Assembly: GCA_964016885.1 (NCBI GenBank) | Contig: OZ024740.1 | Location: forward strand, 75,268,001 to 75,332,000 | Direction: 5' to 3' | DNA from: Eledone cirrhosa | Lineage: Eukaryota | DNA: 64,000 nucleotides | In this document: in pieces, positions 7,960 through 58,022 of the stretch | How positions within the stretch are numbered: position 1 is the stretch's first letter | Layout of the letters: each line of letters opens with the position of its first letter | Notes under the pieces: model-generated | The model's database searches: none | Seen by the model: the letters and a program-made list of their open reading frames with translations, nothing else | Told to the model about the DNA's origin: nothing | Made by a program: the position numbers and the translations under genes

Positions 7960-8442
<483 letters not shown>

Positions 8443-17929: not shown

Positions 17930-19900
17930 CTCAGTTATTATTGGTCATAAGTAACTCTCAGTTAATGCCGGTCAAAAGCATTTGTTACAAGGATTGTTGG
18001 CAGTATCGGTAGAGGGTCGGACGCCATGCTTTCCAGCATAGTTACGTCCCTTTACGGTCTGAGTTCAAATCCCGCCGAGGTTAACTTTGCCTTTCATCCT
18101 TACGGGGTCGATAAAATAAAGTACCAGTAATGCACTGGGTAATTGCTGGCCTTGTGCCAAAAGTAGAAACAATTATTAATCATAAATAACTTAGTTATTT
18201 CTGGTGTTAGATAGTTCCCACTTATTAGTGGCAATGTATAACTATAAGATATTACTGGTTATAACTCTCAATTAAGTTCAGTTATAATATAACACTATAG
18301 CAGAAGAAAAAGGGCTGATCATAAGTAACTTTCACTTATTACAAGGCATATGTGATTATCAGTTATTACTAGTTATAAGTAATCCATGGTTACTGGTTAT
18401 AAGTAACTGTCCATTATTACCAAGGATATGTAACTATGTAACTATCAGTTATTACTGGTCATAAGTTACTTCTGGTTATAGATAATTTGCCGTTCTTACT
18501 GGTCTCAGATAACTATCAGTTGTTACTGGTCATAGATAGCGCAGCTATTACTGGTCATAGATAACTATCAGTTATTACTAGTCATAGTTAACTATCTGTT
18601 ATTACTGGTCATAGATAACAATTAGCTATTACTGGCCTTAGATAGCACAGCTCTTACTGGCCATAGATAGAACAGCTATTACTAGTCTTAGATAGAACAG
18701 CTATTACAGGTCTTAGCACAGCTATTACTGGTCTTAGATAGCACTGCTATTACAGATCATAGACAGCACAGCTATTACTGGTTATTGATAGCACAGCTGT
18801 TAATGGTCATAGTTAACTATCAGTTGTTACTCGTCTTAGCACAGATATTACTGATCATAGATAACACAGTTATTACTGGTCATAGATAGCCCAGCTATTA
18901 CTGGTCATACATACTAGTTATTACAGGTCATAGATACCACAATTATTACTGGTCATAGATAGTACAGCTATTACAAGTCATAGTTACCTATCAGTTATTA
19001 CTAGTCATAGTTAACTATCAACTATTACTAGTCATAGTTAACAATCAGCTATTACTGGTATTAGATAGTGCAGCTATTACTATTCATAGATAGCACAGTT
19101 CTTACTGGTCATAGATAGCACAGCTATTACTGGTTAGAGATAGCACAGCTATTACTGGTTAGAGATAGCACAGCTATTACTGGTTAAAGATAGCACAGCT
19201 ATTACTGGTCATAGATAGCACAACTATTACTGGTCATAGATAGCACAGCTATTACTGGTTAGAGATAGCACAGCTATTACTGGTCATAGATAGCACAACT
19301 ATTACTGGTCATAAGTAGCACAGCTATTACTGGTCATAGATAGCACAGTTATTACTGGTTAGAGATAGCACAGCTATTACTGGTCATAGATAGCACAACT
19401 ATTACTGGTCATAAGTAGCACAGCTATTACTGGTCTTAGATAGCACAGCTATTACTGGTTTTAGATAGCACAGCTATTACTGGTCATAGATAGCACAACT
19501 ATTACTGGTCATAAGTAGCACAGCTATTACTGGTCTTAGATAGCACAGCTATTACTGGTTTTAGATAGCACAACTATTACTGGTCATAGATAACACAGCT
19601 ATTACTGGTCATAGATAGCACAGTTATTACTGGTCGTGGTTAACTATCCGTTGTTACTGGTCATAAACAGCACAGCTATTACTAGTCACGGACAGCACAG
19701 CTATTACTTGTCTTAGATTGCACAGCTGTTACTAGTCACAGTTAACTATCAGTTATTACTGGTCTTAGATAGCACAGCTGTTACTGGTCATAGTTAACTA
19801 TCAGCTATTACTTGTCTTAGACAGTACACCTGTTACTAATCATAGTTAACTATCAGTTTCCTCTGGCTATATACAACTGTCATTTGGTTTTTACTGGTCA
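17930..19900. repeat. Minisatellite, ~25-bp unit TAGCACAGCTATTACTGGTCATAGA with longer variants
   Basis: 25-bp period at 19141/19166/19191; degenerate toward both ends. Confidence 0.95.
17997..18177 (+). mobile_element. Meta-like SINE (young subfamily)
   Basis: Nearly identical to 34019-34206. Confidence 0.88.
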
Positions 19901-19910
19901 TAGTTACTTT

Positions 19911-20267
19911 TAGTTATAGATAGCTGTCTGTAGTTATAGATAGCTGTCTGTAGTTATAGATAGCTGTCTGTAGTTATAGATAGCTGTCTGTAGTTATAGA
20001 TAGCTGTCTGTAGTTATAGATAGCTGTCTGTAGTTATAGATAGCTGTCTGTAGTTATAGATAGCTGTCTGTAGTTATAGATAGCTGTCTGTAGTTATAGA
20101 TAGCTGTCTGTAGTTATAGATAGCTGTCTGTAGTTATAGATAGCTGTCTGTAGTTATAGATAGCTGTCTGTAGTTATAGATAGCTGTCTGTAGTTATAGA
20201 TAGCTGTCTGTAGTTATAGATAGCTGTCTGTAGTTATAGATAGCTGTCTGTAGTTATAGATAGCTGT
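19911..20267. repeat. Perfect 20-bp minisatellite TAGTTATAGATAGCTGTCTG, ~18 copies
   Basis: Directly visible, with no variant units. Confidence 0.98.
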
Positions 20268-22820: not shown

Positions 22821-23822
22821 TAATTTCAGAGAGATTCGGATTTCGGCTGTGGTCGAAAACAAAGTGAAGCGTAATATCCGAGTTATGCTGGCAAGCGCTC
22901 CATGGACCAAATAAAGGCCAGAGCAATAAACATAGGTTATAAAGGCCAAACAAACTGAGATGGCGATCAAGAAGCCATCAACCACTTAAGCCAAAAAGAC
23001 GAGGCAAGCCAAACAGGTCAAACAAAATAATTGAAATATTGAAATATATATATATATGGGGATGGCCGTGTTGCCAGTACTGCCAATAAAAAGAAACACC
23101 ATAAAATTTTCACTTTAATCTTTATTGCTCGTTATTCATTCGTTTGTCAAAGTTCTTTGATCACACATTCTGTAACTTCAATGACTATCTGTTCTCTGTT
23201 GTGCCTCTTCTTCTTTCTGGTCAAAACAAAAGACAAGATGGATTAGAAGTTTAAGAATTTATAAAATTTTGTCTTGATGCAAACTTCAAAGAACCTTTTA
23301 ATAATACATGTTTATTAATACAACATTCAGTTTTATCAAAAGATTTGTTTTGGCCTACGTATGTATCTATGGATGGAATTATACATATATATATTTAAAT
23401 AATTTTGAAAACCAAACAAAGCATTAGAAAGAAAATTAAATCGTGATTTAATTTTCTTTGTAATGAATTGTTTGGTTTTCAAAATTATTTAAATTTGTGT
23501 TTCCTAGTCAACAATCCTTCAAGCAATCTACAAAAGTATATATATATAACAAAGATAGCCGAACTTGTCAAGGGGGTACTTCCTTATATGGGAAGATTGT
23601 AGTTATCAAGAGGATTGGTTAAAATTTGTTGTAAACACAAATAAGTCTATCATGGCATTTGGTGGGAGGTAGGGGTGGCTGAACTTGCCTGTAGAACAAT
23701 AGGGGTGTGAGTGAAGTCGGTCAAGCGTTGAAAGTGATAAGTATACAGCAGATTCTAAGGATAGTGTATGAAGGGAAAGGAGACTTAAAGATCTCCTTAA
23801 TGAAAGCTCCATAGACCTCATC

Positions 23823-24993
23823 ATGTACTCTCGTTATGTAGACGATATCAATATAGTTATAAGAACACCCCCACTAGAGAGCACTAACAAGTTTGATTTA
23901 GAACGTAGCACGATGGAAAGCATCCAACAGATAGCTAATTCCATACACCAGAGTATAACTGTAACTATAGACTTCCCTTCCAAACACCCTAACAATAGAC
24001 TACCTGTATTAGACACAGAACTCTGGATTAACACTATAGACGAGAGAGCCCAAATTCTCCACTCACACTATGCTAAACCCATGGCCTCCAAATACCTGAT
24101 ACTCAAAAACTCAGCAATGTCCAGTAGTGCTAAGTTTAATATTCTGATCGCAGATTTGGTACGAGTGATGAAGAATGTGTCCAGCATGTGCGACCCAACA
24201 GAAATGGAAGGACACATCCAACACTTCATCAACCGCATGCAGTTCTCTGGCTACAACCAAAGAGACAGAGTCAGAGTATACGAAGGAGCCATGGAAAAGT
24301 ATAAGACCCTCATAGAACTGGACATGAAAGGAATTTGCCCACTATACAGGAGCAAATCATGGAATAGCTTAGATAGGGCTAGACATAAGATAGGGAAGGC
24401 CACATCATGGTACGACAACCAGAGATATCAGAGTGTCATGTTTGTGGACGCCACCCCTGGAGGGAAATTAGCTAACCAGTGTAGAAAGGCCCTGAGAAAG
24501 ACCCACTTAAAAATAAAGGTGGTAGAAAAGCCAGGAACCACCATAAAATCCCTGATCAGCAAAACCTACCCTTTTAAGAAAACCCACTGTACCAATAGGA
24601 AATGTATCATTTGTAAGGTGAATCCCCCGGATAAACTGTAAAACTAGAAACGTAGTCTATAGCATAAGATGTACAGAGAGTACTTGCAGAAACATGACAA
24701 CAACATACATAGGTGAGACAGCTCGTAGCATAGGTGAAAGGATAGACCAACACTGGGGGGAACTAAAAGGACGAAAAAACGGGTCAGTACTATACGAACA
24801 TGCTAGACAACAACATGACGGTAACATAGACAACATAGAAATTAGAATAATATCTAAACATAGGAATGACCCAGCAGATAGGCAAATCAGAGAGGCCAGT
24901 GAAATAGAAATTAGAAGACCAAAGCTAAACAGAAAGAATGAGTGGAACAACAACAACACCCAAACAAACAACACTGACCTAAGAGAAGTATAA
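23823..24993 (+). pseudogene. 5'-truncated duplicate of the PLE RT C-terminus/thumb and GIY-YIG
   Basis: ORFs 23823-24641 and 24694-24993 match the corresponding parts of the downstream copy. Confidence 0.9.
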
Positions 24994-25258
24994 ATAAGTA
25001 AATAAAATTAAATAAAATAAGATAAATAAATACATACACAAGCGCATAAACACACACTAGTCACCCAGCAGACACAACACTATACACACTAGTCACACAT
25101 CACACATAACACTATACACACACGCAAACGCATGCGCAAAGAAGACAAAATCAAATAAGATAAACAAACAAGCAAATAAATAAATAAATATATAGACAGA
25201 CTGAACAAAAAAAAAAAAAAAATGGCGTAGACATACAACACAACAGGAGGAACAATGA

Positions 25259-25315
25259 ATATAACACCACTGACGATGTTGCAGATGTGCAACGAAAGAT
25301 TTATGTAAATTATGT
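25259..25315 (+). ncRNA. Hammerhead motif in PLE pLTR
   Basis: CA CUGACGA U GUUGCA GAUG UGCAAC GAAA GAUU UA^ UG; stem I is 2 bp plus distal AUAUAA/UUAUGU. Confidence 0.7.
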
Positions 25316-25501
25316 AAACTATATATATGTGTTTGTGTCTATATTGTATCTGTATTATTTTTGACCGCCGGTCAGTCAATGGCAACATTGAGGACCGAGT
25401 AAGTTAGATCGCAGATATATATATATAAAAGACAGCGAGAAGCGAAAACCAACCAAACAGTGAGTGTGTTCTGTTATTAATTCTGGCAATATTACGCAAA
25501 T

Positions 25502-28500
25502 ATGACCCTCCCCAAATATAACAATATCTGTTTCGACACACGATTTCATATAAAAACCTCGCAAAACTAATTCATCGCCGCTATGGCATTAGCTTGTGCC
25601 AAGCTGAAAGGTTATTGAAAGACACTGTTTTCTGTTATATAAAAACTACAATAACAACAGAACAAATCCGCTTCTTAAAACACTGTGTTTCCTCCAAAAC
25701 ATACACAACAAACATATCAAAACAAGTAAATAATTTATTATTGAACAAAACACAAGTTGAACAGCTAAAACACACAATAACAGTTAATATGAAAAGAACA
25801 ACATACACAAAAGTCAACGCACTCTACAGACAAAAACGCATCAACGGTAAGGAAATCCGAAATCTCATCACAGCAAACGAGAGAGATGACTTCATGAGCG
25901 TCATCCGACGCGAAACGAAATATGCTCAAAACGAATGCTGTAGGCATTTCAAGAAGAAATTAGAATGGATGAATAAGAAAAAACTACAAGAAAGGAAAAT
26001 CGAATATTCTCAAAAATACCCAGATAACATCGACAACATCCGTATGAGTGATGTAAAACTACCGGAAGAATTTACCAATGACCACACAGTAAATATCTAT
26101 GGGAACACTTTAATCAGTGAACAAGAACAACAAATCCTAAAGTTACCACCAAAATTTGCCATCTACAAAAAGATTAACCCTATGGAATGCAAAACGGAGC
26201 TGGAAAAGTGTTTCACAAAAATACGTTGGAATGCAAAGGTAAACAACAACAACAATAATAACGGTAGTAGTAATATAAACAATAACTCTGGGTATAGAAA
26301 TAACAGCCATAACCATAACAATGGCAGGAAAGTGAGAAATAGTGATAATGGCAATAATACTAGCGATAGACAGAACAACAACAACCACAATAATAATAAT
26401 AATAGAAACGTTAACCACAGACACAGCAACAGTGACCACAGTAGTAATAACGGTAACAATACGAACAACAACAACAACAATAACCACAGTGGTAATAATG
26501 GAAATAGTACATGTAGCAACATCAACAAAAACAAGAAACATAATAATAGTAACAACCACAATGGTAGAAATAGCAGTAACAACAACAACAATAACGGTGA
26601 AGTAAACAACAATACATCTAGCAATCATAACAATAATAATATTAATGCTAATGATAGAAACAACAACAACCACCATGATAACAATAATAGCAACACACAC
26701 AACTATGACGATAGAAATAACGACAACCCCTTAGAGAAACTATTTTTCAACCCAGCTGACAAAACATATAAGATGGGTAATATCTATCCTACGAGGTTAC
26801 CCTTTAATAAAAGAGTTTGCATACCACAGCAAATAGATGACGAGACGGAGGCACAGTTCACCATAGCTAGAAATAAGATTAGACAAGTAGTAGACAGGTA
26901 CACTATGAGACAGAGCAGACCAGAGGCCCAACAACTTGGGATAAAACCTGTAGAAGGCTTGGTTAGCCTCAAGCAGCGCACAAGGGATGGTGAGGTAGTG
27001 TGTCTACCCACAGATAAGTCTGGTAGGATGTCAATAGATAGCATGCCGAACTACATCGAGGCAATGCAACCCCACATCACCAACACGAGCGAAGTTGCAC
27101 AACTAACACACGATGGGAGAGAAAAAATCCTCAACGCTCACATGATGATGTGGACTGACATCCTAAAGCCAAGCAGACGCACTGCCAACAACTTCCAGGC
27201 GTCTAACAATGGCATACCACCCTTGTATGGGCTCCGCAAAGACCACAAGACAGTCGACGACCCGACAACAGGACCACCAACAAGACCCGTATGCGGAGCT
27301 AATATAGCTAGCAACTACAGGATCTCCTACTTCCTCTCAATGGTTATACGCCCCATAATCAAGATGTCCCCAGATGTATGTGAAAGTACAGAGGACCTCC
27401 TCAGCAGAATCAGTGAGTGCAACAAAAACAGGAGCCTATCCAACTGCATAATAGGCAGCATGGATGTGGTGTCACTGTACCCATCCATTAACATTGATTT
27501 TGCTGTGAAAAGATGTGTGGAGATGATCATTGAGAGTGAGGTGGAGTTCTGCGACGTCGACACAGACGAACTGGGCCTCCTACTTAGACTTACCTACGAC
27601 ACTGACTACCTAGACAGCCATGACCTTAGATGTTTCTGCCCTAGTAGACCTATAAGAGGTAGACCCCCCACCATAACCTCAATGGCTAAAAAGACTCCCA
27701 TAGGAAGGTGGATTGGGTGGACCAAAGCTATACGGACCCCCCAAAACACTGATCAGGTAAGAAAAATGGTCGCACATGCAATAGGGGCTAGTATCAAAAC
27801 TACCCTAAAGGGCCACATATTTAAGTTCAATGAGAAAATCTACACCCAAAATGAGGGAGCAGCCATCGGCGTCAGCATAGCTGGTGATGTTGCCAACCTT
27901 TTCATGGTATGGTGGGAAAGGAGACTTAAAGATCTCCTTAATGAAAGCTCCATAGACCTCATCATGTACTCTCGTTATGTAGACGATATCAATATAGTTA
28001 TAAGAACACCCCCACTAGAGAGCACTAACAAGTTTGATTTAGAACGTAGCACGATGGAAAGCATCCAGCAGATAGCTAATTCCATACACCAGAGTATAAC
28101 TGTAACTATAGACTTCCCTTCCAAACACCCTAACAATAGACTACCTGTATTAGACACAGAACTCTGGATTAACACTATAGACGAGAGAGCCCAAATTCTC
28201 CACTCACACTATGCTAAACCCATGGCCTCCAAATACCTGATACTCAAAAACTCAGCAATGTCCAGTAGTGCTAAGTTTAATATTCTGATCGCAGATTTGG
28301 TACGAGTGATGAAGAATGTGTCCAGCATGTGCGACCCAACAGAAATGGAAGGACACATCCAACACTTCATCAACCGCATGCAGTTCTCTGGCTACAACCA
28401 AAGAGACAGAGTCAGAGTATACGAAGGAGCCATGGAAAAGTATAAGACCCTCATAGAACTGGACATGAAAGGAATTTGCCCACTATACAGGAGCAAATCA

Positions 28501-29133
28501 TGGAATAGCTTAGATAGGGCTAGACATAAGATAGGGAAGGCCACATCATGGTACGACAACCAGAGATATCAGAGTGTCATGTTTGTGGACGCCACCCCTG
28601 GGGGGAAATTAGCTAACCAGTGTAGAAAGGCCCTGAGAAAGACCCACTTAAAAATAAGGTGGTAGAAAAGCCAGGAACCACCATAAAATCCCTGATCAGC
28701 AAAACCTACCCTTTTAAGAAAACCCACTGTACCAATAGGAAATGTATCATTTGTAAGGTGAATCCCCCGGATAAACTGTAAAACTAGAAACGTAGTCTAT
28801 AGCATAAGATGTACAGAGGGTACTTGCAGAAACATGACAACAACATACATAGGTGAGACAGCTCGTAGCATAGGTGAAAGGATAGACCAACACTGGGGGG
28901 AACTAAAAGGACGAAAAAACGGGTCAGTACTATACGAACATGCTAGACAACAACATGACGGTAACATAGACAACATAGAAATTAGAATAATATCTAAACA
29001 TAGGAATGACCCAGCAGATAGGCAAATCAGAGAGGCCAGTGAAATAGAAATTAGAAGACCAAAGCTAAACAGAAAGAATGAGTGGAACAACAACAACACC
29101 CAAACAAACAACACTGACCTAAGAGAAGTATAA
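25502..29133 (+). CDS. Penelope-like retroelement polyprotein (RT + Cys-rich linker + C-terminal GIY-YIG endonuclease), Naiad-like; interrupted by three 1-nt homopolymer indels
   Basis: ORF 25594-28665 has RT motifs GSMDVVSLYPSI, EGAAIGVSIAGDVANLF, YSRYVDD and LPVLDTELWI. Downstream frames give HCTNRKCIIC..NCKTRNVVYSIRC..C..YIGETARSIGER..H..S.LYEH...H. True start is probably ATG 25502 ([28 protein letters not shown], in frame in the 29644 copy). Indels at ~25552 (A5 vs A6), ~28656 (A2 vs A3 in the upstream copy) and ~28764 (C5). Confidence 0.93.
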
Positions 29134-29400
29134 ATAAGTAAATAAAATTAAATAAAATAAGATAAATAAATACATACACAAGCGCATAAACACACACTAG
29201 TCACCCAGCAGACACAACACTATACACACTAGTCACACATCACACATAACACTATACACACACGCAAACGCATGCGCAAAGAAGACAAAATAAAATAAGA
29301 TAAACAAACAAGCAAATAAATAAATAAATATATAGACAGACTGAACAAAAAAAAAAAAAAAAAATGGCGTAGACATACAACACAACAGGAGGAACAATGA

Positions 29401-29457
29401 ATATAACACCACTGACGATGTTGCAGATGTGCAACGAAAGATTTATGTAAATTATGT
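29401..29457 (+). ncRNA. Hammerhead motif in PLE pLTR (second copy)
   Basis: Identical to 25259-25315; homologues at 33695-33748 and 42490-42543. Confidence 0.7.
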
Positions 29458-29728
29458 AAACTATATATATGTGTTTGTGTCTATATTGTATCTGTATTAT
29501 TTTTGACCGCCGGTCAGTCAATGGCAACATTGAGGACCGAGTAAGTTAGATCGCAGATATATATATATAAAAGACAGCGAGAAGCGAAAACCAACCAAAC
29601 AGTGAGTGTGTTCTGTTATTAATTCTGGCAATATTACGCAAATATGACCCTCCCCAAATATAACAATATCTGTTTCGACACACGATTTCATATAAAAAAC
29701 CTCGCAAAACTAATTCATCGCCGCTATA

Positions 29729-29904: not shown

Positions 29905-30305
29905 GTATAGGTGGGTACTATAGAGTGGGTAATAGGAACGAGTAGGACCACGACGGCTGCGCTCAAGCCGTTTCAACGGCTAATTCTGGACATTTCAGTC
30001 CAGAATTAGCCGTCGAAACGGCTTGAGCTCAGCCGTCGGGGTCCTACTCGTTCCTATTACCCACTCTACTACCCTAAGTATTGAGTACTTTGGTGCGTTA
30101 TGGTCCACCTGGTTCCTTACCACATTTCCTTCGTTATATATATATATATATATATTGTTATACTTTGGGAGGGTCATGTTGCCAATAAGAAACACACGCA
30201 CCAGTTTCTTTCACTTCAATGTATTATAATAAATTTATAAATTTAGGAATTTATAAATTTCTGGTTGGTTGGTTGGTTCCACAACCAGATAGTTGTTTAT
30301 ATATT

Positions 30306-30348
30306 GTCAAACTTCTTTCGTCACACATTCTGTGACCTCTTCAGTGAC
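30306..30348 (-). ncRNA. Type I minimal hammerhead ribozyme (inverted arm)
   Basis: As 30452 but with loop 3 GAAG; a decayed relative lies at 23146-23185 (-). Confidence 0.8.
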
Positions 30349-30451
30349 TGGGGATTCTTTTCTTTGTTTTTGTGTCTCTCCTTTGTTCTGTCCTACGCCA
30401 TTTTGTTTCTGTGTGTGTGTTGAGACACAAAAACAAAGAAAAGAATCCCCA

Positions 30452-30494
30452 GTCACTGAAGAGGTCACAGAATGTGTGACGAAAGAACTTTGAC
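30452..30494 (+). ncRNA. Type I minimal hammerhead ribozyme
   Basis: GUCA CUGAAGA G GUCACA GAAUG UGUGAC GAAA GAAC UU^ UGAC. Confidence 0.8.
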
Positions 30495-31150
30495 AATATA
30501 TAAACAACTATCTGGTTGTGGAACCAACCAACCAACCAGAAATTTATAAATTCCTAAATTTATAAATTTATTATAATAAATTGAAGTGAAAGCAACTGGT
30601 GCGTGTGTTTCTTATTGGCAACATGACCCTCCCAAAGTATAACAATATCGGTTTCAACACACTATTTCAGATAAAGAATCTTGCTAAACAAATTCAGAAA
30701 CGAAATATATATATATATATATACGCATGTATGTATATTTATTATAATGCTCGGTTTGTTTGTAAACAAACAGCCCGAATTACGCCGCACAGTGTCTAGG
30801 CAACCACGTCACCTTTTTGTTTACAAACAAACCGAAAACCGATACGTGCATGTATATATGTGTGCATGTATGTATATATATATATACATACTACTGTACG
30901 TCTGTATACATATATGTATGTACGTATACATACATGCGTACTTACATTTAAGTAACTGCCGTACTAAGAGTGAGAAAATGAAATTTCGTTTCATTCTATT
31001 CCATTTATATATATACAGAAAATAATTTATAATCATGATTAATGTCATGAAATGGTTATTGTTTTATTGTTATCGAAAATGCCTCGTTATATGTGTGTAT
31101 GGTGTGTGTGTGTATGGTGTGTGTGTGTGTATGGTGTGTGTGTGGTGTGT

Positions 31151-31631: not shown

Positions 31632-31727
<96 letters not shown>

Positions 31728-31813
31728 TGAAGTTTCCGTTGAAAATTGAAAAAGTCAGAGGTTTCCCGAATAAGACGAATACAAGACACGTCCGCATTCG
31801 TTCATCGAAATTG

Positions 31814-31881
31814 CCTTGTCTGATGAACGAATGCGGACGTGTCTTGTATTCGTCTTATTCGGGAAACCTCTGGTAATGAAG
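31814..31881 (+). ncRNA. Type I hammerhead motif with extended stem II
   Basis: CUUGU CUGAUGA ACGAAU..AUUCGG GAAACC UCU GGUA^ AUGAAG; homologous to 51270-51336. Confidence 0.6.
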
Positions 31882-31909
31882 TAATTATACTGTATTGTTT
31901 ATTATACAT

Positions 31910-31982
<73 letters not shown>

Positions 31983-32199
31983 CGAAGGAAATGTGGTAAG
32001 CAGCCATATGGACCGTAACGCCCCAGAGTACTCAATACTTAGGGTAGTAGAGTGGGTAATAGGAAAATGTTTAACCCCGACAGCAGAGCTCAAACCGTTT
32101 CGACGGCTATTTCAGTCCAGAAATAGCCGTCGAAACGGCTTGAGCTCTGCCGTCGGGGTTAAACATTTTCCTATATATATATATATATATAATAATTAT

Positions 32200-33014: not shown

Positions 33015-33024
33015 TATGAATTTG

Positions 33025-34000
33025 TAAATCTCTGATCAGCAAAACAAACCCTTTTATGAAAATCCACTGTACTAATAAGAAATGTATTATATGTAAAGTA
33101 AACTCCCGGATAAACTGTAAAACTAGAAACGTAGTCTATAGCATAAGATGTACAGAGGGTACTTGCAGAAACTTGACAACAACATACATAGGCGAGACAG
33201 CTCGAAGTATAGGTGAAAGGATAGACCAACACTGTGAGGAACTAAAAGGACGAAAAAACGGTTCAGTACTATACGAACATGCCAGACAACATGACGGTAA
33301 CATAGACAACATAGAAATTAAAATATCTAAACATAGAAATGACCCAGCAGATAGGCAAATCAGAGAGGCCAGTGAAATAGAACTTAAAAGGCCAAAGCTA
33401 AACAGAAAAAATGAATGGAATAACAACAACGCCCAAACAAACAATACTGACCTAAGAGAAATATAAATAAATAAATAAATAAATATATACACAATAACAA
33501 CAAACACATATAAACACACACTAGTAAACTAAGATAGAATACAATAACCAAAACACAGTCACCCAAACACGAACACACACACCAATCACTATACACACAC
33601 GCAAACGCATGCGCAGAGAAGACAAAAATAAATAAATAAATAAACAGATAAAATAAAAATGGCGTAGACATACAATACAACAGGAGGAAACATAATAGCA
33701 CCACTGATGATGTTGCAGGTGTGCAACGAAAGAACTTTGTTAGACTATATATATGTGTTTATATCTATATTATATCTGTATTTTTTACCCTTGGTCAGTC
33801 AATGATAAACATTGAGGACCGAATGAATTAAGTGTGGAGATATAACAGATACAGAAGCGAAAATCAACCAAACAGTGAGTGTGTTCTGTTATTATTTCTG
33901 GTAATATTATTACAACAATATGACCCTCCCCAAGTATAACAATATTTGTTTCGACACACGATTTCACATCAAAAACCTCGCAAAACAAATTCATCGCCAT
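33025..34000 (+). mobile_element. 5'-truncated copy of a related Naiad-like PLE subfamily (GIY-YIG + pLTR)
   Basis: ORF 33056-33466 is closely similar to the GIY-YIG above and in frame across the linker. The pLTR is homologous and ends at AATTCATCGCCAT before TA repeats. Confidence 0.9.
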
Positions 34001-34018
34001 TATATATATATTTATATT

Positions 34019-34206
34019 GGTGGTGGATTGGCAGTATCGGTAGAGGGTCGGACGCCATGCTTTCCAGCATAGTTACGTCCCTTTATGATCTGAGTTCAAA
34101 TCCCGCCGAGGTTGACTTTGCCTTTCATCCTTACGGGGTCGATAAAATAAAGTACCAGTAATGCACTGGGTAATTTGCTGGCCTTGTGCCTAAAGTAGAA
34201 ACAATT
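34019..34206 (+). mobile_element. Meta-like SINE (young subfamily)
   Basis: Nearly identical to 17997-18177. Confidence 0.88.
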
Positions 34207-34267
34207 ATATATATATTTATATTTATATATATATATGAGTATGTATGTGTATATATTTCTATATATA

Positions 34268-34336
<69 letters not shown>

Positions 34337-34339
<3 letters not shown>

Positions 34340-35077
34340 GAAACACACAGATACATGCGGACGCACACATATATACATGAATGCATCTGCACCCAACTGT
34401 GAGTTAAGGGTGCCGACTTCACCGATGTTGCTCAATGAATGACTGGGACAGACCAATTCAGTTTGAACTAGACTGAACCAGTATCAGAGTTAAAAATACA
34501 TTATGAAGAGAGAAGAAACATTTAGATATAATTAGTAATAAAATGTATCATACCTAAACTGTTCCTAAATTCCTCTAAATTCCTTAACTCACAGTTGGGT
34601 GCGGATGCATTCATGTATATATGTGTGCGTCCGCATGTATCTGTGTGTTTCTAAATATATTAATAACTCCCTCTGGTCGAGCAATCTTTGAGGTGTGGGG
34701 ACAACTGGAAAGCTTCCATTACTCATACTTCTCGCCTTCTTCACTACCTCTTCTACGGCCTCGATATGAATACCCCCTCCGCCTCCGTGGTATTTTCTTC
34801 GTGGTTATAAGAGGCTTAGCTCTGTTTCTCGACCGTTATATCGCGTGACTATCTCCCCCTCCGCCTTTTGGGATTCTTTCTCACGTCGTGTAGACGCGTT
34901 CTTGAGACTAGTAAAATGAGGTATCCTCTTGATAAGTCGGCAGACCTCGCAAGGACTCTATATCTTTGATATATTGTTTTTGTTTATGCCACGAAACTAC
35001 GTGGTCGAGGAATTTAGGAACAGTTTAGGTATGATACATTTTATTACTAATTATATCTAAATGTTTCTTCTCTCTTC

Positions 35078-35081
<4 letters not shown>
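34337..35081. mobile_element. Head-to-head non-coding HHR module (~590-nt circularly permuted unit)
   Basis: 34337-34411 is inverted at 34582-34656; 34501-34575 is inverted at 35007-35081. Confidence 0.8.
34924..35011 (+). ncRNA. Type I hammerhead, U3-A8 core variant, large loop 2
   Basis: UCCUC UUGAUAA GU(C)GGCA..UGCCAC GAAAC UACGUG GUC^ GAGGA. Confidence 0.78.
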
Positions 35082-35151
<70 letters not shown>

Positions 35152-35406
35152 TATATATATATAGAAATATATACACATACATACTCACATACATGCATGT
35201 ATACACACAGAGGCAAACACACACAAACGCACACTATGTGTGTTTGTGTGTATGGATGTATTTATGTGCGGATGTAAGTATGCATGTTTGTATATGGATA
35301 TATATATATATACTTACAGACAAGCATGCATACACACAAACTCAGAGATACACACACATGTGTGTCTGCGTATTTATGTCTCTATGTATGTAAGTATGCC
35401 TGAATG

Positions 35407-37640: not shown

Positions 37641-37792
37641 CCGGGAGGATAAAGGTTATCTCGGCAGGTGTGAACTTAGAATACAAGGAGCTCGAATAAA
37701 TACCACAAGGTATTTTGTCCAATGTACTAACACTTCTACTACATTGACTATACTCTTCTTGTGTGAAAATAAGAAATCGATATATAATAATT

Positions 37793-38640
37793 ATTTCTAC
37801 TTTGGCACAAGGCCGACAATTATCACAGTGCATTACTGGTACTTTATTTTATCGACCTCGTAAGGATGAAAGGCAAAGTGAACTTCGGTGGGATTTGAAC
37901 TCAGACCATAAAGGGCCGTAACAAAGCATGGCGTCCGACCCATACTGCCAATCCACCGCCCTTCGATATATAATAATTGTTTCTACTTTTGGCACAAGGC
38001 CAGCAATTACCCAGTGTATTACTGGTACTTTATTTTATCGATCCGTCAGGATTAAAGGCAAAGTTAACCTCGACGGGATTTGAACTCAGAATGGAAAGGG
38101 CTGTAACTCTATACGTCAAAGTATGACGTCCGACCCTCTACCAATACTGCCATAATGATTTTAAAATATACATCTTTAAGACAAACGTAGTTGATATAAT
38201 GGCATCTATCTATACGATTAATAATGATTATATGGAAGTTGGAAAGATGAACAGAAAAGGAACTTAAAACGCAATGACCCGTACAAACATCCCAAAGGGA
38301 TTACCCCCTCAATCTGAGGATTGTTCCAATCAAGCACCCAATAATAATCGTTTCTACTTTTTGCACAAGACCAACAATTTGAAGGGAACGGGAAAATTGA
38401 TTAAATCAACTCCAGTACATTACTGGTACTTTATTTTATCGACACCGTAAGAATGAAAGGCAAAGCTAACCTTGGCGGGATTTGAACTCAAAATGAAAGA
38501 GTCGGACTGAAATACAGCAAAACATTCTGTCCAGCACGTTTGTGCCACTACCTTCGCTTCTTGTTTCTACTTTAGGCACAATAATAATTTCTAGTTTCTA
38601 CTTTAGGCACAAGGCCAGCAATTACCAGTGCATTACTGGT
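37793..38640 (-). mobile_element. Cluster of Meta-like SINEs (37793-37960, 37975-38151, 38345-38540, partial 38562-38640)
   Basis: Repeated core. The first copy has TSD TCGATATATAATAATT at 37777-37792 and 37963-37978. Confidence 0.85.
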
Positions 38641-40918: not shown

Positions 40919-40982
<64 letters not shown>

Positions 40983-41229
40983 CAAAGAAAATGTGGTAAG
41001 AAACCAGGTGGACTATAGCGCACCAGAGTACTCGATACTTAGGGTAGTAGAGTGGGTAATTGGAAAAGAGTCAGGACCCTGATGGCTGAGCTCCGGCCGT
41101 TTCGACACCTAGAGCTATCGAAATGGGCTCAACTCAGCCGTCGGGGTCCTAACTCTTTTCCTATATATATATATATAATATTTATCTGCATATATATGTA
41201 CATGTGTGTTTGTGTGTCTGTGTGATACG

Positions 41230-41826
41230 AGCTGCCCTCACCCGCACCCCAGAAACCGACCATACCACAGCCCTGTCACCCCACACCCGCCTTACTTTCC
41301 TCTGATCTACCACCCCAACACCCTACATCCCCAGCGACACATCCTCATTTGCTTCCGCACCCTCTCCTCTGACACCGTCACTTCTCGCTTCTTTCCAAAC
41401 CCTCCCATCCACACCTTTAAGCGCGTCCGTAATCTCCGTGACCTGGTACGCAGTTCCTTCTCTTCCTCAACTAGGGCTCCACCCGGCTCTCGTCCCTGTT
41501 CTTGTTCCCACTATAACACCTGTCCCTTCATTTCTAACCTCAACACTTTCATAGGCACTAACAGTTCTATCCGTATCCGCTACTCCTTCACCTACACATT
41601 CACCCATGTAGTCTATGCCCTCAGCTCTTCCCTTTGCGGGTCCATATACATCGGTCAAACAGGCAGCCGCTTGGTGGACCGTTTTGTTGAACACTTGATG
41701 GACATAAGACTCGGCATGGATACCCCCGTCGTTCACTATTTCCGTTCACGAGGCCACTCCCTCTATATGTCTCAGTCCTTGGTATTCTTTTACATCACGG
41801 ATCCTACTGTACCATACGTAAAATAA
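41230..41826 (+). pseudogene. Degenerate PLE linker + GIY-YIG fragment (Neptune-like)
   Basis: PLIYHP..FKRVRNLRDLVRS..PCSCSHYNTCPFI..HVVYAL...CGSIYIGQTGSRLVDRFVEHLMDI..PVVHYF. Confidence 0.8.
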
Positions 41827-42424: not shown

Positions 42425-42720
42425 AAAGTGAAATTAAAATAAAATAAAAATGGCGTAAACATTACAATACAATAGGAGGGAACATAATAATAGTAACACT
42501 GATGATGTTGCAGATGTGCAACGAAAGAACTTAGATAGACTATATATATATATTTATATCTGTATTTTTAACCTTTGGTCAATCAATGATAAACGTTGAT
42601 TGCTAAATAGATTAACTATGGAGATATAAAAGATACAGAAGCGAAAACCAACCAAACAGTGAGTGTGTTCTGATATTATTTCTGGCAATATTGTTACAAC
42701 AATATGACCTTCCCCAAGTA
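42425..42720 (+). mobile_element. Solo pLTR fragment of the same PLE group
   Basis: AAAATGGCGTA..CTGATGATGTTGCAGATGTGCAACGAAAG..CCAACCAAACAGTGAGTGTGTTCTG..ATGACCTTCCCCAAGTA, flanked by TA repeats. Confidence 0.85.
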
Positions 42721-43022
42721 TATATATATATATAAAAACTACCTCAATTTGGAAATAATGTTTTGTTAATCATTTAAATATACACTCCACCTGTAACCAG
42801 TATCCATAATGAAAGCAAATTTATTTATTGATATAGCAGGTCTATAAACTAAATATATGGAAAAGTGCACAGCATTGTTAATGCGATGGATTAGAAATAA
42901 ACAGCTTTTTCTTTAGTTAAGCGAGAGATAACTTTACAATGTATAATTTATACAAACATTCCATTCCGTTGTTGAGATTTAAGTTACACACACACACGCG
43001 CACACACACACTCACACACACA

Positions 43023-43302: not shown

Positions 43303-43880
43303 CCATATATATATACATTTATATTACGTTTTAATCATTTTCTAACCCAGAAAAACGAGAGAAATAAATAAATGGGTAAAAAAATTTGATTTATTAGGTT
43401 CACGCTCTTGAGAGTGGGGCGGGCGTGTATATATATATATATATATATATTAGGATTGGTGCTCTGAAATAGCGATGTATACATGAATGTATGCATAGTA
43501 TATTTGGCAATATACGGTATGTTTAATTAAAAACATTTTGAAGACCTTACGCTATCATTTTTAAAGTAGTGACTATGTCACTTACTTCTTGTCGGCGAAA
43601 GAAGGGAGAGAAGCTAACAGTCTGTTAGCTTGTATATATATATATACAATATAAAGAAATACACAGATACATGCGAATACATACACATGCATGCATATAC
43701 GCACATATATCCCTGAATTTGTGTGGTGCCAACCTTAACCGTTGTTGCTCTTTGATTATTAATAGGGACAAAATAATCTGAATGAATTAGATTGACTCTA
43801 TATCAGAGCTATATAATACATTATAAAGAAAGAAGAAACATTAGACATAAATAAAACATAAATACCCAATATTCCTCTTC

Positions 43881-43974
43881 ATTCTCGACTGCGCAGTTTC
43901 GTGGCTACTTTGCAAAAACATTACATCATAGAGATGCAGTATTTCTGTGAGGTTTGCCAACTTATCAAGAGAAT
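43881..43974 (-). ncRNA. Type I hammerhead, U3-A8 core variant
   Basis: AUUCUC UUGAUAA GU(U)GGC..GCCAC GAAAC UGCGCA GUC^ GAGAAU. Confidence 0.8.
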
Positions 43975-44447
43975 ACCTCATTTAGAGTTTCAAAATACGT
44001 CTGCAAGGCGCGAGAGTGAACCCGGAAAGGCGGAGGGGAACTTATCACGTGATACAGCGGTCAAGAAACAGAGTTAAGCTTCTTACAACCAAGAGAAAAA
44101 TACCACAATGGCGGGGGGGGGGGGGTATTAATATCTAGGCTAGAGACGAGGTGGCTAAAGAGGGCTAGGAGTGTAAATAGTGTCACTATACTTCTGTGGT
44201 TACTCTACCGTAGGGAGTTATAGACAATATAAAGAAATACACAGATACATGCGAATACATACATATACATGCATATATGAACATATATCCCTGAATTTGT
44301 GTGGTGCCAACCTTAACCGTTGCTGCTCTTTGGTTGTAAGAGGCTTAACTCTGTTTCTTGACCGCTGTATCACGTGATAAGTTCCCCTCTGCCTTTCGGG
44401 GTTCTCTCTCGCGTCTTGCAGGCGTATTTTGAAACTTTAAATGAGGT

Positions 44448-44541
44448 ATTCTCTTGATAAGTTGGCAAACCTCACAGAAATACTGCATCTCTATGATGTA
44501 ATGTTTTTGCAAAGTAGCCACGAAACTGCGCAGTCGTGAAT
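44448..44541 (+). ncRNA. Inverted copy of the U3-A8 hammerhead
   Basis: As 43881-43974, with one stem I mismatch (GUGAAU). Confidence 0.7.
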
Positions 44542-44624
44542 GTAGAGGAATATTGGGTATTTATAATGGACTGAAATAGCCGTCGAAACGGCTTGAGCAC
44601 TGCCGTTGGGGTCCTGAACATTTT

Positions 44625-44677
<53 letters not shown>

Positions 44678-44824: not shown

Positions 44825-44906
44825 GTTATTCCGGGTTGAATCGGAGGTAACCACAGTAAGTAAGGTACTCAATACATAGCAGAGTATAATAGTTTTAATA
44901 TAGATG

Positions 44907-44957
44907 AGATTCTACAGGACTAGAACTGTTTCATTCATTAGAAATCATCAGGAATCT
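44907..44957 (-). ncRNA. Type I hammerhead ribozyme (inverted arm)
   Basis: Reverse complement of 45643-45693. Confidence 0.82.
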
Positions 44958-45642
44958 GGGTATCAAAAAATAAATATGGTATTTATAGGTCTCTACAAGT
45001 GGTAGGAGAGGGTGGGGAGTGGGATGGGTGCAGGTCATTGGTTGATAGAGAAGGGAATTCATTAAAGGCTAATTCTACATAGCTATAGTTAATTTATATT
45101 TATTTATGTTTTTAGAGTAACAAAGGCAGACAGAAATCTATAAACAAGTTCCGGATGGCATACCATTCCTTGTCAATAAGTTTCTCTTAAGCTAGCAGAT
45201 GTCTATAAAATCAGTGGGGGGTCATTCATGCTCGATAGAATTAAAGAAAAGGGAGATTCTTTAAAAGCTAAAGTCATTAAGTTCTGCTAAGTGACAAAGG
45301 TCTAGGGAATTCTGCAGAATTAATGACTTTAGCTTTTAAAGAATCTCCCTTTTCTTTAATTCTATCGAGCATGAATGACCCCCCACTGATTTTATAGACA
45401 TCTGCTAGCTTAAGAGAAACTTATTGACAAGGAATGGTATGCCATCCGGAACTTGTTTATAGATTTCTGTCTGCCTTTGTTACTCTAAAAACATAAATAA
45501 ATATAAATTAACTATAGCTATGTAGAATTAGCCTTTAATGAATTCCCTTCTCTATCAACCAATGACCTGCACCCATCCCACTCCCCACCCTCTCCTACCA
45601 CTTGTAGAGACCTATAAATACCATATTTATTTTTTGATACCC

Positions 45643-45693
45643 AGATTCCTGATGATTTCTAATGAATGAAACAGTTCTAGTCCTGTAGAATCT
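45643..45693 (+). ncRNA. Type I hammerhead ribozyme
   Basis: AGAUUC CUGAUGA U UUC UAAU GAA U GAAACAG UUCUAGUC CUGUA^ GAAUCU: 6-bp stem I and 4-bp stem III. Confidence 0.82.
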
Positions 45694-45705
45694 CATCTAT
45701 ATTAA

Positions 45706-45752
<47 letters not shown>

Positions 45753-46320: not shown

Positions 46321-46588
46321 AGATGGTAGCTAAGATGCTTCCATAGGCGGTATGCCGGTTGAGCACTCTATGCTCTCACAGAGCAGAGTATGTTAGGATA
46401 GAAAACGAAAAATCAGTGATGCATCTGAACTCAATTTATTGTGTGTTACAATTGTTTCGCCGGCGGACAGCTCGAGACGCGATCATTGTATGGATCTGTC
46501 TGATTCTGGACCCGCAGGTTCGACGGTGAAACAATTGTAACACACAATAAATTGAGTTCAGATGCATCACTGATTTTTCGTTTTCTAT

Positions 46589-46648
<60 letters not shown>

Positions 46649-46861: not shown

Positions 46862-47029
46862 GAAGAAAACGGTTTGATCGAACCTATAATTGATGTCTGA
46901 TAGTATACAGTTATATAACTTCTATAGATGAGTCAATATGTCAGTATGATCAACCCTCCGAAACGATCGTAAAACAATGATATGAATAGATAAAATAACC
47001 TTGTTATTGTTTTCATTGCTAAATTAATA

Positions 47030-47099
<70 letters not shown>

Positions 47100-47126
47100 T
47101 ATTAATTTACCAATGAAAACAATAAC

Positions 47127-47169
<43 letters not shown>

Positions 47170-49309: not shown

Positions 49310-51086
49310 ATGGTGGCTGCCAACTCGTTTTCGAGTACAGCCACTACTTTACATCCATGTAGGAGAACCCCTACCGATGCGCTGAACGAGTGTGACTTTT
49401 TAGTCCAGCCAGCGACTTGAAAACTCTGGTACAAACACTACACTTGTGACAATTATTGACACATAGTGCTGAGCCTATGGTACCATGTGACGACAAGTGC
49501 AGAGAGATCTCCAGATATAAAGCAATGCCTGTGTTGTGAAGCTTTTATAGTGAGCAAAGGCACTGCACAAAGCCAGTCCCACTCTCTTAACCAAGATGAT
49601 ATTTACCAAAAAGAAAAACAAGTCAACATCATTGGATACCATCAGGGTTGCAGGTGTTATATCAGAGTTTTCCTTCTCCTAGAATTCTGCCTTGACAAAG
49701 GCTAAGGGGTCATACATACATACATACATACATGGTGGCTGCCAACTCGTTTTCGAGTACGGCCACTACTTTACATCCATGTAGGATAACCCCTACCGAA
49801 GCGCTGAACGAGTGTGACTTTTTAGTCCAGCCAGCGACTTGAAACCTCTGGTACAAACACTACACCTGTGACAATTATTGACACATAGTGCTAGGCCCAT
49901 GGTAGGACAATTATTGACACATAGTGCTGGGCCCATGTGAGGACAAGTGCAGAGAGATCTCCAGATATAAAGCAATGCCTGTGCCGTGAAGCTTTTATAG
50001 TGAGCAAAGGCACTGCACAAAGCCAGTCCCACTCTCTTAACCAAGATGCTATTTACCAAAAAGAAGAACAAGTCAACATCATTGGATACCATCAGGGTTG
50101 CAGGTGTTATATCAGAGTTTTCCTTCTCCTAGAATTCTGCCTTGACTAAGGCTAAAGGGGTCATCTCTCCCGGTGATTTGGATGGCCATTGACTCTTAAG
50201 AGCTCCTTTGCCCTTTGACAGGTTTTGTTATACATACATACATACATACATACATACATACATACATACATGATGGCTGCCCCCTCGTTATCGAGTATGG
50301 CCATTGCACGATATACCACTATTAATAATTATTAATTAATTCTATCGTGCCGGTGGATTGGCAGCATCGGCAGAGGGCCGGATGCCATGCTTTGACGCAT
50401 AGAGTTACGACCCTTGCCATTCTGAGTTCAAATACCGCCGATGCAAACTTTGCCCTTCATCCCTACGGGGTCGATAAAATAAAGCACCAGTAATATACTG
50501 GGCAATTGTGGCCCTGTGCCAAAAGTAGAAACAATTAATTAATTCTATCGTGCAATGCCTGTGCGTGAAGATATTTTTAAAGTGAGGAAAGACTGTGCAC
50601 TGAGCCAATCCCACTCTCTGAGCGACAGTAGCTATAACCCGAAAAGAAGAAAAGATCAACATCATCGGTAACTACTGAGCCGCAGGTTTTATATCGGAGT
50701 TATCCCAGTTTCCTGAGTTGCCTTCTCCTAGAAGAATGCCCTGAGAAAGGCTAGGGGTCCTTCACTCCCAGTGGTTTAACCGCGTGATCGGGTGTCCAGC
50801 CCGACTATTTCTATGTCCCTGTGCATATACATACACATGCACCCATGTATATACACACATACATATACATACATATGCTCATGTGTATATACATATTTAC
50901 ACACTTTTGGATGGCCGTTGACCCTTATGAGTTCTTCCGCCCTTTGTCAGGTTTTGTTTTTTGTCCTGCCGGGTGTCCAAAATCACCCTCCTCACCAAGT
51001 AAACTTGGTGGGGTTGCCGGTTTAGTCACCGACGACCCGACCATGCGACAAGGTTGTACTGGGTTACATGTTACCAGTAGCACTCA
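49310..51086 (-). mobile_element. Tandem non-coding RTE-5'UTR-like elements with (TATG)n tails
   Basis: Units at 49310-49710 and 49733-50228, plus a diverged unit 50271-51086 split by a SINE. The minus strand has CTAGGAGAAGGAAAACTCTGA, which resembles RTE leaders. Confidence 0.55.
50351..50533 (+). mobile_element. Meta-like SINE with 20-bp TSD
   Basis: TSD ATTAATTAATTCTATCGTGC at 50331-50350 and 50534-50553. Confidence 0.88.
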
Positions 51087-51252
51087 ATATACATACATAT
51101 ATACATGCATACAGGAAGGTGGCCGGTCAAAAAAATATACTCGAAATTAAGAGAAAGAGGTAACATACATATATATATAAATATGAAGTATTTCCGCATA
51201 AAGGGAGAGTGCTTTATGTATATTACAGAGCTATTTGATTATGTGATAAACG

Positions 51253-51675
51253 ACACAATACAATTATTCCATTTACCAAAGGTTTCACGAAGACAGGCGA
51301 GCTCAATAGAGACGTCTGAAATCGTTCATCAGAATGTACGCCTGCCGCCTGTATTTTCCGATTCTTAGCCCACTGAGATTAGTGGTTGGCATCCCTTCGC
51401 CACGATGAGGCGTCTGGCGAGACCAGGGGAATCATCAGAGGTATCATATATATATATATATGTAATAAAAAACACAATACAATTATTCCGTTTACCTCGC
51501 CTGTCTTCGTGAAACCTTTGGTAAATGGAATAATTGTATTGTGTTTTTTATTACATATATATATATATATAATACCCCTGATGATTCCCCTGGTCTCGTC
51601 GGACGCCTCATCGTGGCGAAGGGGTGCCAACCACTAATCTCAGTGGGCAAAGAATCGGCAAATACAGGCGGCAGA
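51253..51675. mobile_element. Head-to-head HHR module, ~219-nt period
   Basis: ACACAATACAATTATTCC at 51253 and 51472; arms ~51342-51496 and 51520-51675 are inverted. Confidence 0.75.
51270..51336 (-). ncRNA. Type I hammerhead ribozyme with extended stem II
   Basis: CAUU CUGAUGA ACG..33 nt..CGU GAAACC UUU GGUA^ AAUG. Confidence 0.78.
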
Positions 51676-57837: not shown

Positions 57838-58022
57838 TATTTCTACTTTTTGGCACGAGGCCAGTAATTAGTCAGTGCATTACTGGTACTTTATTTTAAC
57901 GACCCCGTAAGGATGAAAGGCAAAGTTAACCTCGGCATGATTTTAACTTAGACCGCAAAAGAACGTAACTCTATGCTGCAAAGCATGGCATCCGACCCTC
58001 TACCGATGCTGCCAATCCACCT
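57838..58022 (-). mobile_element. Meta-like SINE with 13-bp TSD
   Basis: TSD CTAGTAAAATAAT at 57825-57837 and 58023-58035. Confidence 0.85.

Follow-up and report, generated by a model that had tools for sequence, protein, structure and literature searches.

A putative U3-A8 hammerhead ribozyme in a retrozyme-like unit inserted at (TA)n in Eledone cirrhosa

Introduction

Metazoan non-LTR retrozymes are described as non-autonomous derivatives of Penelope-like elements (PLEs), with units of 51-972 bp (bioRxiv 10.64898/2026.07.22.740005, Li et al.). The U3-A8 hammerhead is a natural variant that is active in vitro (PMC3088659 section 8; PMC4209133), and about 1,300 U3-A8 matches are present among the PLE-related motifs of Schistosoma mansoni (PMC4209133). 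A palindromic helix III together with cleavage as a dimer is described behaviour of PLE hammerheads (PMC4209133; PMC6765202). In about 40% of hammerheads, stems I and II are predicted to be linked by a pseudoknot, and fast cleavage depends on this contact (PMC3088659, Perreault et al. 2011).

PLE insertions form partial tandems with an inverted 5'-truncated copy and show a bias for (TA)n (PMC8557442, Craig et al. 2021). With a purified PLE protein, both strands of AT-rich DNA were nicked, and internal stem-loop sites served as starting points for reverse transcription (PMC11167929). The role of the hammerhead in PLE biology was called unclear by Craig et al. (PMC8557442). Frangieh et al. 2024 (PMC11167929) reported that cleavage is dispensable for insertion in vitro and saw no RNA ends at the cut site. 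Penelope is an abundant family in octopus genomes, as reported in passages that do not mention ribozymes (PMC8967140).

Here we describe a hammerhead motif in a 64,000-nt stretch of the Eledone cirrhosa genome, called the window below. Published work already covers U3-A8 cores, a palindromic helix III, pseudoknots and animal retrozymes; what is new is how these known parts are assembled, the host in which they occur and a junction located at the cut site. Our search of literature listings and of the papers cited here found neither a cephalopod case nor a U3-A8 core that goes with both a long structured insert in helix II and a palindromic helix III of 10 nt; the PLE hammerhead variants of Lunse et al. 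2017 may narrow this statement. The likely explanation is a selected type I hammerhead in a retrozyme-like retroelement of 580-590 nt, copied into (TA)n by PLE proteins.

Results and Discussion

Hammerhead copies and core motif

The motif occurs in three copies at two loci, A and B (Table 1). The sequence-only reading had placed a hammerhead with a U3-A8 core at 34924..35011, and all of its letters and coordinates check. In this copy A, stem I pairs UCCUC (34924-34928) with GAGGA (35007-35011), helix II consists of 2 bp, a bulge and 4 bp, and helix III is ACUACGUGGU (34996-35005). U3 is at 34929, A8 at 34934, the G10.1-C11.1 pair at 34936/34992 and C17 at 35006, with GAAA starting at 34993; the predicted cut falls between 35006 and 35007. 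In copy B1, stem I pairs UUCUC (43973-43969) with GAGAA (43886-43882) and can be extended to 7 bp, helix III is ACUGCGCAGU (43897-43888), and the predicted cut falls between 43887 and 43886. Copy B2 probably decayed after insertion.

U3 U4 G5 A6 U7 A8 A9, G10.1-C11.1, GAAA, A15.1-U16.1 and C17 are present in all three copies, and the Watson-Crick pair 3-8 is U3-A8 in each. The conserved type I core (U4 G5 A6, A9, G12 A13 A14, A15.1-U16.1, H17) is likewise found around a three-way junction in 3 of 3 copies. Helices I (open), II and III can be formed in A and B1, and in B2 with a mismatch in stem I.

Table 1. Positions in the window of the ribozyme copies, insertion arms and related features
Feature	Position	Strand	Description
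Hammerhead copy A	34924-35011	+	Type I, U3-A8 core, 5-bp stem I, 10-nt self-complementary helix III
Hammerhead copy B1	43882-43973	-	U3-A8 core, perfect 10-nt palindromic helix III, 50-nt insert
Hammerhead copy B2	44449-44540	+	Intact core; stem I (GUGAA) broken by one mismatch
Helix II insert of A	34943-34986	+	44 nt: ACCUCG (34944-34949) and a 14-bp hairpin
UGAGGU tail 5' of stem I	34917-34922	+	Candidate pseudoknot partner of ACCUCG
Locus A right arm	34582-35082	+	Unit +167 through ribozyme to +76 of next unit; 3' end on (TA)n
Locus A left arm, inverted	34331-34575	-	From +1 of cleavage site (or +2 to +4) to 3' terminus +245, on (TA)n
Junction of A arms	34565-34584	.	Exact 10-nt direct duplication and 3-nt microhomology
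(TA)n target left of locus A	34206-34336	.	
(TA)n target right of locus A	35081-35173	.	
Locus B left arm	43641-44335	-	About 1.2 units of 578-nt period; on short (TA)n
Locus B right arm, inverted	44330-44564	+	226/235 identical to 43858-44092; ends +29
Second hammerhead family, inverted arms in (TA)n	51240-51680, 31726-31912		Canonical CUGAUGA core, long helix II, 3-bp helix III
Coding PLE, broken	23766-29727	+	RT, CX4CXXC linker, GIY-YIG-like motif; partial tandem ending on (TA)n; context, outside the element

A strict descriptor, which allowed any Watson-Crick pair at 3-8 and required at least 5 bp in stem I and a self-complementary helix III, gave 2 matches in the window and none in 200 dinucleotide-shuffled windows or in 5000 shuffled units. 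With a loose descriptor there were 3 matches: A, B1 and a canonical motif at 51332 that is unrelated to them. Of 200 shuffles, 2 contained one match. The core pattern had 3 matches compared with a shuffle mean of 0.05. When a covariance model was built from the three copies, it found those three only in the window, with the next best match at E=0.097.

As had been claimed from the letters, standard CUGANGA searches would miss this motif. The published min-HHR descriptor requires CUGANGA and a loop 2 of at most 10 nt (PMC4209133 supplement), and would miss it because core and loop length both differ. Rfam gave no hammerhead match at gathering score and none among 150 listed of 196 matches with E<=1. 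The motif exposes a blind spot, in which descriptors based on CUGANGA and a short loop 2, as well as Rfam, miss such ribozymes. No match to the 578-nt unit was found by blastn in phages or plasmids, and none to the 26-nt core pattern in bacterial and archaeal genomes.

Like the U3-A8 min-HHRs of Cercyon in S. mansoni (PMC4209133), the copies have a UUGANAA core, are of type I and lie in a PLE context. Opposite-strand motif pairs 100-700 bp apart are also described there (PMC4209133), and B1 and B2 are about 490 bp apart. In the S. mansoni 3 and 4 rows, loop 2 has 4-9 nt, helix III is nearly absent and an additional base comes ahead of helix II (PMC4209133), whereas in the copies described here helix III is a 10-nt palindrome, helix II is bulged and carries a long insert, and the additional base is missing. 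The defining traits of Schistosoma min-HHRs (loop 2 <=10 nt, minimal helix III, extra base 9/10.1) are thus absent. The short self-complementary helix III, which favours a double hammerhead, is shared with the palindromic PLE hammerheads of Drosophila virilis Penelope and Aedes aegypti and with the dimeric hammerheads of newt/axolotl; D. virilis Penelope also has the helix II bulge and the Aedes rows have the 10-nt palindrome. In contrast to the present copies, those hammerheads have a C3-G8 core and a short loop 2.

Pairing conservation between two lineages

B1 and B2, with differences at 9 of 235 sites, come from one insertion; therefore, only two lineages were compared. Outside the ribozyme, the identity between these lineages is about 77% across 390 aligned columns. 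The core UUGAUAA and GAAAC..GUC had been called fixed, and all 12 fixed core letters are indeed kept between A and B (p=0.045 under flank substitution rates). In the core helices 14 of 14 pairs survive, two of them through double changes, which has p about 0.001 under the same rates. All 12 substitutions at the 54 paired sites outside the pseudoknot are pairing-compatible (p 1-3e-5; about 1e-4 without stem I), p-values that are optimistic, like the others given for pairing, because the pairs were partly picked with both sequences in view. Between A and B1, every substitution at the 34 modelled pairs keeps pairing. When all three rows are aligned, pairing holds in 101 of 102 cells and 3 double changes are present; shuffling of columns gave the observed score in 21 of 500 trials, and no slid control exceeded 50% pairing.

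Two changes had been singled out by the sequence-only reading. That of stem-loop III (ACUACGUGGU versus ACUGCGCAGU) is real and keeps self-complementarity, with p=0.07 alone. That of stem I, UCCUC/GAGGA to UUCUC/GAGAA, is real too, and its description as compensatory is less secure, at p=0.055 alone: the 3' change is a substitution in MAFFT and a 1-nt gap in pairwise alignment, and may be a 1-nt deletion. Taken with helix II, the two give p=0.0017. The broader claim that covariation supports a hammerhead stands in part, since the core and the three helices are present and two lineages are insufficient for family-level covariation. At the level of sequence, the reading of the motif as a U3-A8 type I hammerhead is supported.

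A chance hammerhead resemblance inside an ordinary repeat is very improbable. It would account for the lack of an Rfam hammerhead match, at gathering score or among the weaker matches listed, and for p>0.05 for each named covariation alone. It does not sit well with the empty shuffles under the strict descriptor (0/200 and 0/5000), with a joint pairing p of about 1e-4 or lower, or with an insertion context in which such motifs are expected.

A distal stem I extension of copy A was rejected, as it is not kept in B1. Outside the ribozyme, two-sequence RNAalifold gave 7 and 3 double changes with 46 pairs each; these carry no evidential weight, coming from two sequences and a covariation bonus. 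RNAalifold also placed a hairpin ahead of the shared 3' terminus in both subfamilies.

Helix II insert and candidate pseudoknot

The distance from A9 to G12 is 57 nt in A and 61 nt in B. A bulged helix II of 6 bp (A) or 5 bp (B) leaves 44 nt and 50 nt, respectively. This had been taken for a loop 2 of about 40 nt; instead, it is a structured extension, mostly base-paired. The insert alone folds to a 14-bp hairpin at -11.0 (A) and -12.9 kcal/mol (B), and shuffles did as well in 5 of 1000 cases for A and 0 of 1000 for B (2 of 1000 on a repeat run). In this hairpin 13 pairs share the register between A and B, and all seven substitutions are pairing-compatible, with one pair changed on both sides (p 0.003-0.004). 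The natural 44-50-nt structured insert is a possible ready site for ribozyme engineering.

An unpaired strand of the insert, ACCUC(G/A), is complementary to the UGAGGU tail (-6.9 and -7.0 kcal/mol). The candidate 6-bp pseudoknot can form in both lineages, which differ there by one one-sided change (conservation not significant, p 0.31-0.37). Among possible partners, the UGAGGU tail is the best 8-mer of 570 in the B unit and ranks 7 of 493 in A. In copy A, ACCUCG can also pair with the 3' strand of stem I (-6.5 vs -5.6). We give the UGAGGU:ACCUC pseudoknot an even chance of being real. In the modelled structure it is a plausible substitute for the usual loop-loop contact: it would dock stems I and II, and the long insert hairpin would hang off helix II, outside the core. 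The pseudoknots of Perreault et al. 2011 likewise have 4-6 bp between stems I and II; compared with these, the partner in A and B is an internal-loop strand ahead of a 14-bp hairpin.

Cleavage as monomer or dimer

The hairpin form of helix III, 3 bp closed by a 4-nt loop, is unstable at +1.5 kcal/mol, and the self-duplex has 10 bp at -12.3 (A) and -16.9 (B1). The double change from A-U to G-C falls within the 4 loop nucleotides of the monomer helix III, and because of this position it is explained by inter-copy pairing. Computed without the pseudoknot, the double-hammerhead dimer has -58.3 (A) and -62.1 kcal/mol (B1), compared with -43.0 and -42.2 for two monomer hammerheads; the best cofold has -62.5 (A) and -65.7 (B1), which leaves the dimer 3.6-4.2 kcal/mol above the cofold minimum. 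The monomer hammerhead lies above the minimum-energy fold (-21.5 vs -27.7 in A, -21.1 vs -25.9 in B1). Compared with shuffles, folding of the ribozyme region reaches a z of -1.3 to -1.7 at best.

With a weak 3-bp helix III and a palindromic loop, efficient cutting would occur mainly when two copies pair as a double hammerhead, and tandem or read-through transcripts would be cut after GUC (35006 / 43887). The ribozyme probably cuts as a dimer. We think it rather likely that copies A or B1 measurably cleave. Among nine predicted Xenopus retrozyme dimers, 8 were uncleaved in vitro and 1 was cleaved (bioRxiv 10.64898/2026.07.22.740005).

The motif could also descend from a real hammerhead that no longer cleaves, and serve as a folded signal for the PLE protein or persist as a relic, which we consider unlikely. 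Template-switch correction of short palindromes is a known process, and the palindrome and hairpin changes would then come from DNA-level palindrome correction. Loss of cleavage agrees with a monomer hammerhead that is not the predicted minimum-energy fold, with the stem I already lost in B2 and with cDNA that passed through an uncut ribozyme at both loci. It also agrees with PAc, whose ribozyme mutants inserted normally and for which no RNA-seq read ends were found at the cut site (PMC11167929). However, 12 of 12 fixed core letters are kept, including the U3-A8 swap, which matters only for the catalytic fold; the partners of stem I are about 80 nt apart; and one arm begins at the cut site. 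A hammerhead that still cuts remains the preferred reading.

Unit and insertion layout

The two arms at 34337-35081 had been proposed to close a unit of about 590 nt. We found that the arms, spanning 34331-35082, overlap with 76/76 and 78/79 identical positions and close 591 nt. The 578-nt period claimed for the other locus was also found, with 110/117 identical. At 2 of 2 loci, head-to-head 5'-truncated arms lie in (TA)n as a partial tandem plus an inverted 5'-truncated copy. The arms of locus B are joined via short microhomology, and its right arm is followed by a 60-nt hairpin element and then (TA)n. Three of the four arm 3' ends adjoin (TA)n directly and the fourth does so via the 60-nt element. 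Two of the four share one terminus: the left arms of A and B end at one unit position, behind a hairpin and 4 nt short of AACTCCCT. Counted from the cut site, this position is +245 in A and +241 in B. The right-arm 3' ends are elsewhere, at +76 (A) and +29 (B).

The unit has a GC content of 0.37-0.42, and its longest stop-free frame is 86 codons (four segments). When 120 of 302 PLE-related proteins were compared with the unit by tblastn, none matched at E<=0.01. The unit lacks the open reading frame for a telomerase-like RT and GIY-YIG endonuclease that marks an autonomous PLE. No protein or DNA link was found between the unit and the coding PLE at 23766-29727, the top score of 52 (shuffle maximum 48) being a low-complexity, opposite-strand match, and derivation of the unit from the window's coding PLE was rejected for this reason. 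A DNA-transposon (MITE) reading was rejected as well, since the inverted matches are internal overlaps, not termini.

Upstream of the ribozyme, CCCCTCCGCC and TC(A/G)CGTGA are kept in both subfamilies (34780-34875 (+), 44040-44125). We take them to resemble GC-box and E-box promoter motifs, and the region is a possible internal promoter.

Like metazoan non-LTR retrozymes (PMC7229834, Cervera & de la Pena 2020; Li et al.), the element is a non-coding low-GC unit (GC <45%) with one type I hammerhead. As in those, genomic copies are longer than one unit, and PLEs, the proposed driver in both papers, co-occur. Its length of 578/591 nt is outside the 170-400 nt of Cervera & de la Pena 2020 and inside the 51-972 bp of Li et al. 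Unlike those retrozymes, the unit has a U3-A8 core and a 44-50-nt structured insert, and it is found in short head-to-head insertions, not in arrays of at least 2 full units. Li et al. define retrozymes by two consecutive hammerhead-bearing units; the longest same-strand run in the window has about 1.2 units and one ribozyme, and we call the element retrozyme-like, not a member, because two consecutive units do not occur in this window.

The element is like PLEs (Neptune/Nematis-type linker; PMC8557442; PMC11167929) in its partial tandem with an inverted 5'-truncated copy, its (TA)n targets, its fixed internal 3' terminus and the hammerhead in the repeat; compared with PLEs, it has no RT or endonuclease. 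The insertion layout suggests a non-autonomous element that Penelope-like retrotransposons move. A selected hammerhead in a PLE-mobilised non-coding unit is likely. In the proposed mechanism, a PLE endonuclease would cut (TA)n and both ends would prime reverse transcription on the unit RNA. One priming would occur at the fixed internal site (+241/+245) behind the hairpin and the other elsewhere, and the cDNAs would join head to head. Templates longer than one unit would be uncut multimers or ligated circles.

The size of the unit and the position of its ribozyme (578-591 nt; 250-268 nt in) are like those of the 3' region of the window's coding PLE (594 nt; 279 nt in). It could accordingly be the 3' pseudo-LTR of a coding PLE family from outside the window, with both loci as 5'-truncated tandem/inverted copies. 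PLE copies are mostly 5'-truncated, it was the coding Cercyon element that led to U3-A8 motifs (PMC4209133), and a GIY-YIG-like frame at 41179-41826 suggests that other PLE families are present. However, beyond the 3' terminus, non-coding sequence leads back to the ribozyme in about 250-270 nt in both subfamilies, and neither an ORF nor PLE protein similarity follows that terminus. We regard the pseudo-LTR origin as quite unlikely and retain the non-coding, PLE-mobilised unit as the preferred reading.

Circular or linear template

The end overlaps and the 1.2-unit run call for a template that is circular or longer than one unit, and a circle is not distinguished from an uncut tandem precursor because both give the same overlaps. 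The permuted unit of the earlier reading stands, and its circle of about 590 nt becomes one of two readings. Analogy makes a circle likely because animal retrozymes accumulate mainly as circles (PMC7229834). As a circle, the 578-nt unit folds at z -2.6 (40 doublet shuffles), which is weak. In all, whether circular RNA is made is evenly balanced in our estimate.

To the alternative that no circular RNA is made, and that the permutation arose by reverse transcription of linear, incompletely cut multimers, we give a little under an even chance; it departs from the best explanation in the template only. At locus A, one RNA running from the cut site through the next uncut ribozyme would have been primed from both target ends, and the locus does map to one linear RNA, +1 to +667 (left arm +1 to +245, right arm +167 to +667). 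Locus B requires just 1.2 units. On the other hand, no genomic dimer was seen in the window as a source of such RNA, and the circles of related animal retrozymes and the modest advantage over shuffles in circular folding speak for a circle. The layout of locus A, with priming from both target ends, recalls L1 twin priming. Among the matches listed, our literature search found no paper linking the two.

Junction at the cut site

At locus A, 34500-34575 is an exact inverted block of 35007-35082, which puts the beginning of the left arm at 35007, directly after C17. A start at +2 to +4 is also allowed because of the 10-nt duplication and 3-nt microhomology at the junction. The chance that one of four inner ends lies within 4 nt of the cut site is about 3%, or 0.7% if exact; the other three inner ends are at +167, +130 and -210.

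The window contains a second hammerhead family in inverted arms (Table 1). Its motif at 51332 (minus strand) has a helix II domain of 39 nt. The inner ends of this family are 4 nt upstream of the cut site (51496) or at the 5' core edge (about 31808-31819). Because they lie near the core and off the cut site, they weaken the argument that a junction equals cleavage; stalling at the ribozyme structure can put junctions near the core. As a cleavage signal, the locus A junction is no more than suggestive.

Locus A may be a record of in-cell cleavage, a reading that we hold to be doubtful. Reverse transcriptase would have run off an RNA 5' end cut at GUC/G, and the second cDNA would have read through the next uncut ribozyme; the family would then be a cephalopod retrozyme lineage with a U3-A8 core, a dimer-dependent helix III and a pseudoknotted, hairpin-extended helix II. 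There is a new mechanism only if the junction signal holds up. If insertions preserve template 5' ends, the family offers a sequence-only test of hammerhead cleavage in PLE templates.

The presence of a second family with a long helix II in the same 64 kb suggests that such ribozymes are undercounted in this host. The second family also contains a stretch, at 51356-51430 (-), that scores 30.8 bits against an HDV-like ribozyme model of Rfam (gathering 44, E=0.086), a weak match that is probably due to chance.

Host setting and other repeats in the window

The window is AT-rich animal DNA, rich in microsatellites. The coding PLE is the same kind of machinery as the presumed driver of the U3-A8 element and belongs to a different family. 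Its broken reverse-transcriptase frame (25522-28665) has 302 relatives, the best named being Octopus vulgaris proteins with 69-70% identity. The frame changes near 25555, 28662 and 28760, an Asn-rich low-complexity insert is present, and the Pfam support is weak (RVT_1, E=9e-5, below cut-off). Its partial tandem is a 1822-bp repeat with 99.5% identity. Truncated and inverted older relatives lie nearby as fragments at 33020-34017, 42439-42722 and 30152-30705.

Repeats of the coding PLE carry six minimal hammerheads with a canonical core, at 25270, 29412, 30456, 33704, 42499 (+) and 30344 (-). These have CUGANGA, an extra base and a 6-bp helix II, and stem I is apparently very short in most of them.

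A decayed frame at 41179-41826 (+) has CXXC and YIGQTG motifs (GIY-YIG-like) and no Pfam match. It is unrelated to the main PLE by self-BLAST, and its motifs suggest the endonuclease end of another PLE family. A frameshifted LINE-type reverse transcriptase is found at 52414-54436 (+) (Pfam RVT_1, E=4e-27).

A minisatellite at 18496-20267 consists of 53 units of 25 bp followed by a perfect 20-bp array of 18 copies. A dispersed SINE-like repeat of about 180 bp is present in many copies (34009-34208, 17997-18180, 37780-38152, 50352-50543, 57829-58033, 5831-5978 and 2272-2836). ARAGORN found no tRNA in this repeat and 0 genes in the window as a whole, and a tRNA-derived head was rejected.

Further long self-inverted segments at 44885-45716 (834 bp, 97.6%), 46394-46592, 46980-47150 and 23393-23494 are possibly more head-to-head insertions. 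A short hairpin-rich repeat at 44565-44630 ends on (TA)n and makes head-to-head pairs, and its relatives are found at 5266-5471, 29921-30155, 31982-32175, 40920-41106 and 8246-8432. The locus B right arm carries one copy of this repeat fused at its 3' end, acquired either by a template switch or by a later insertion.
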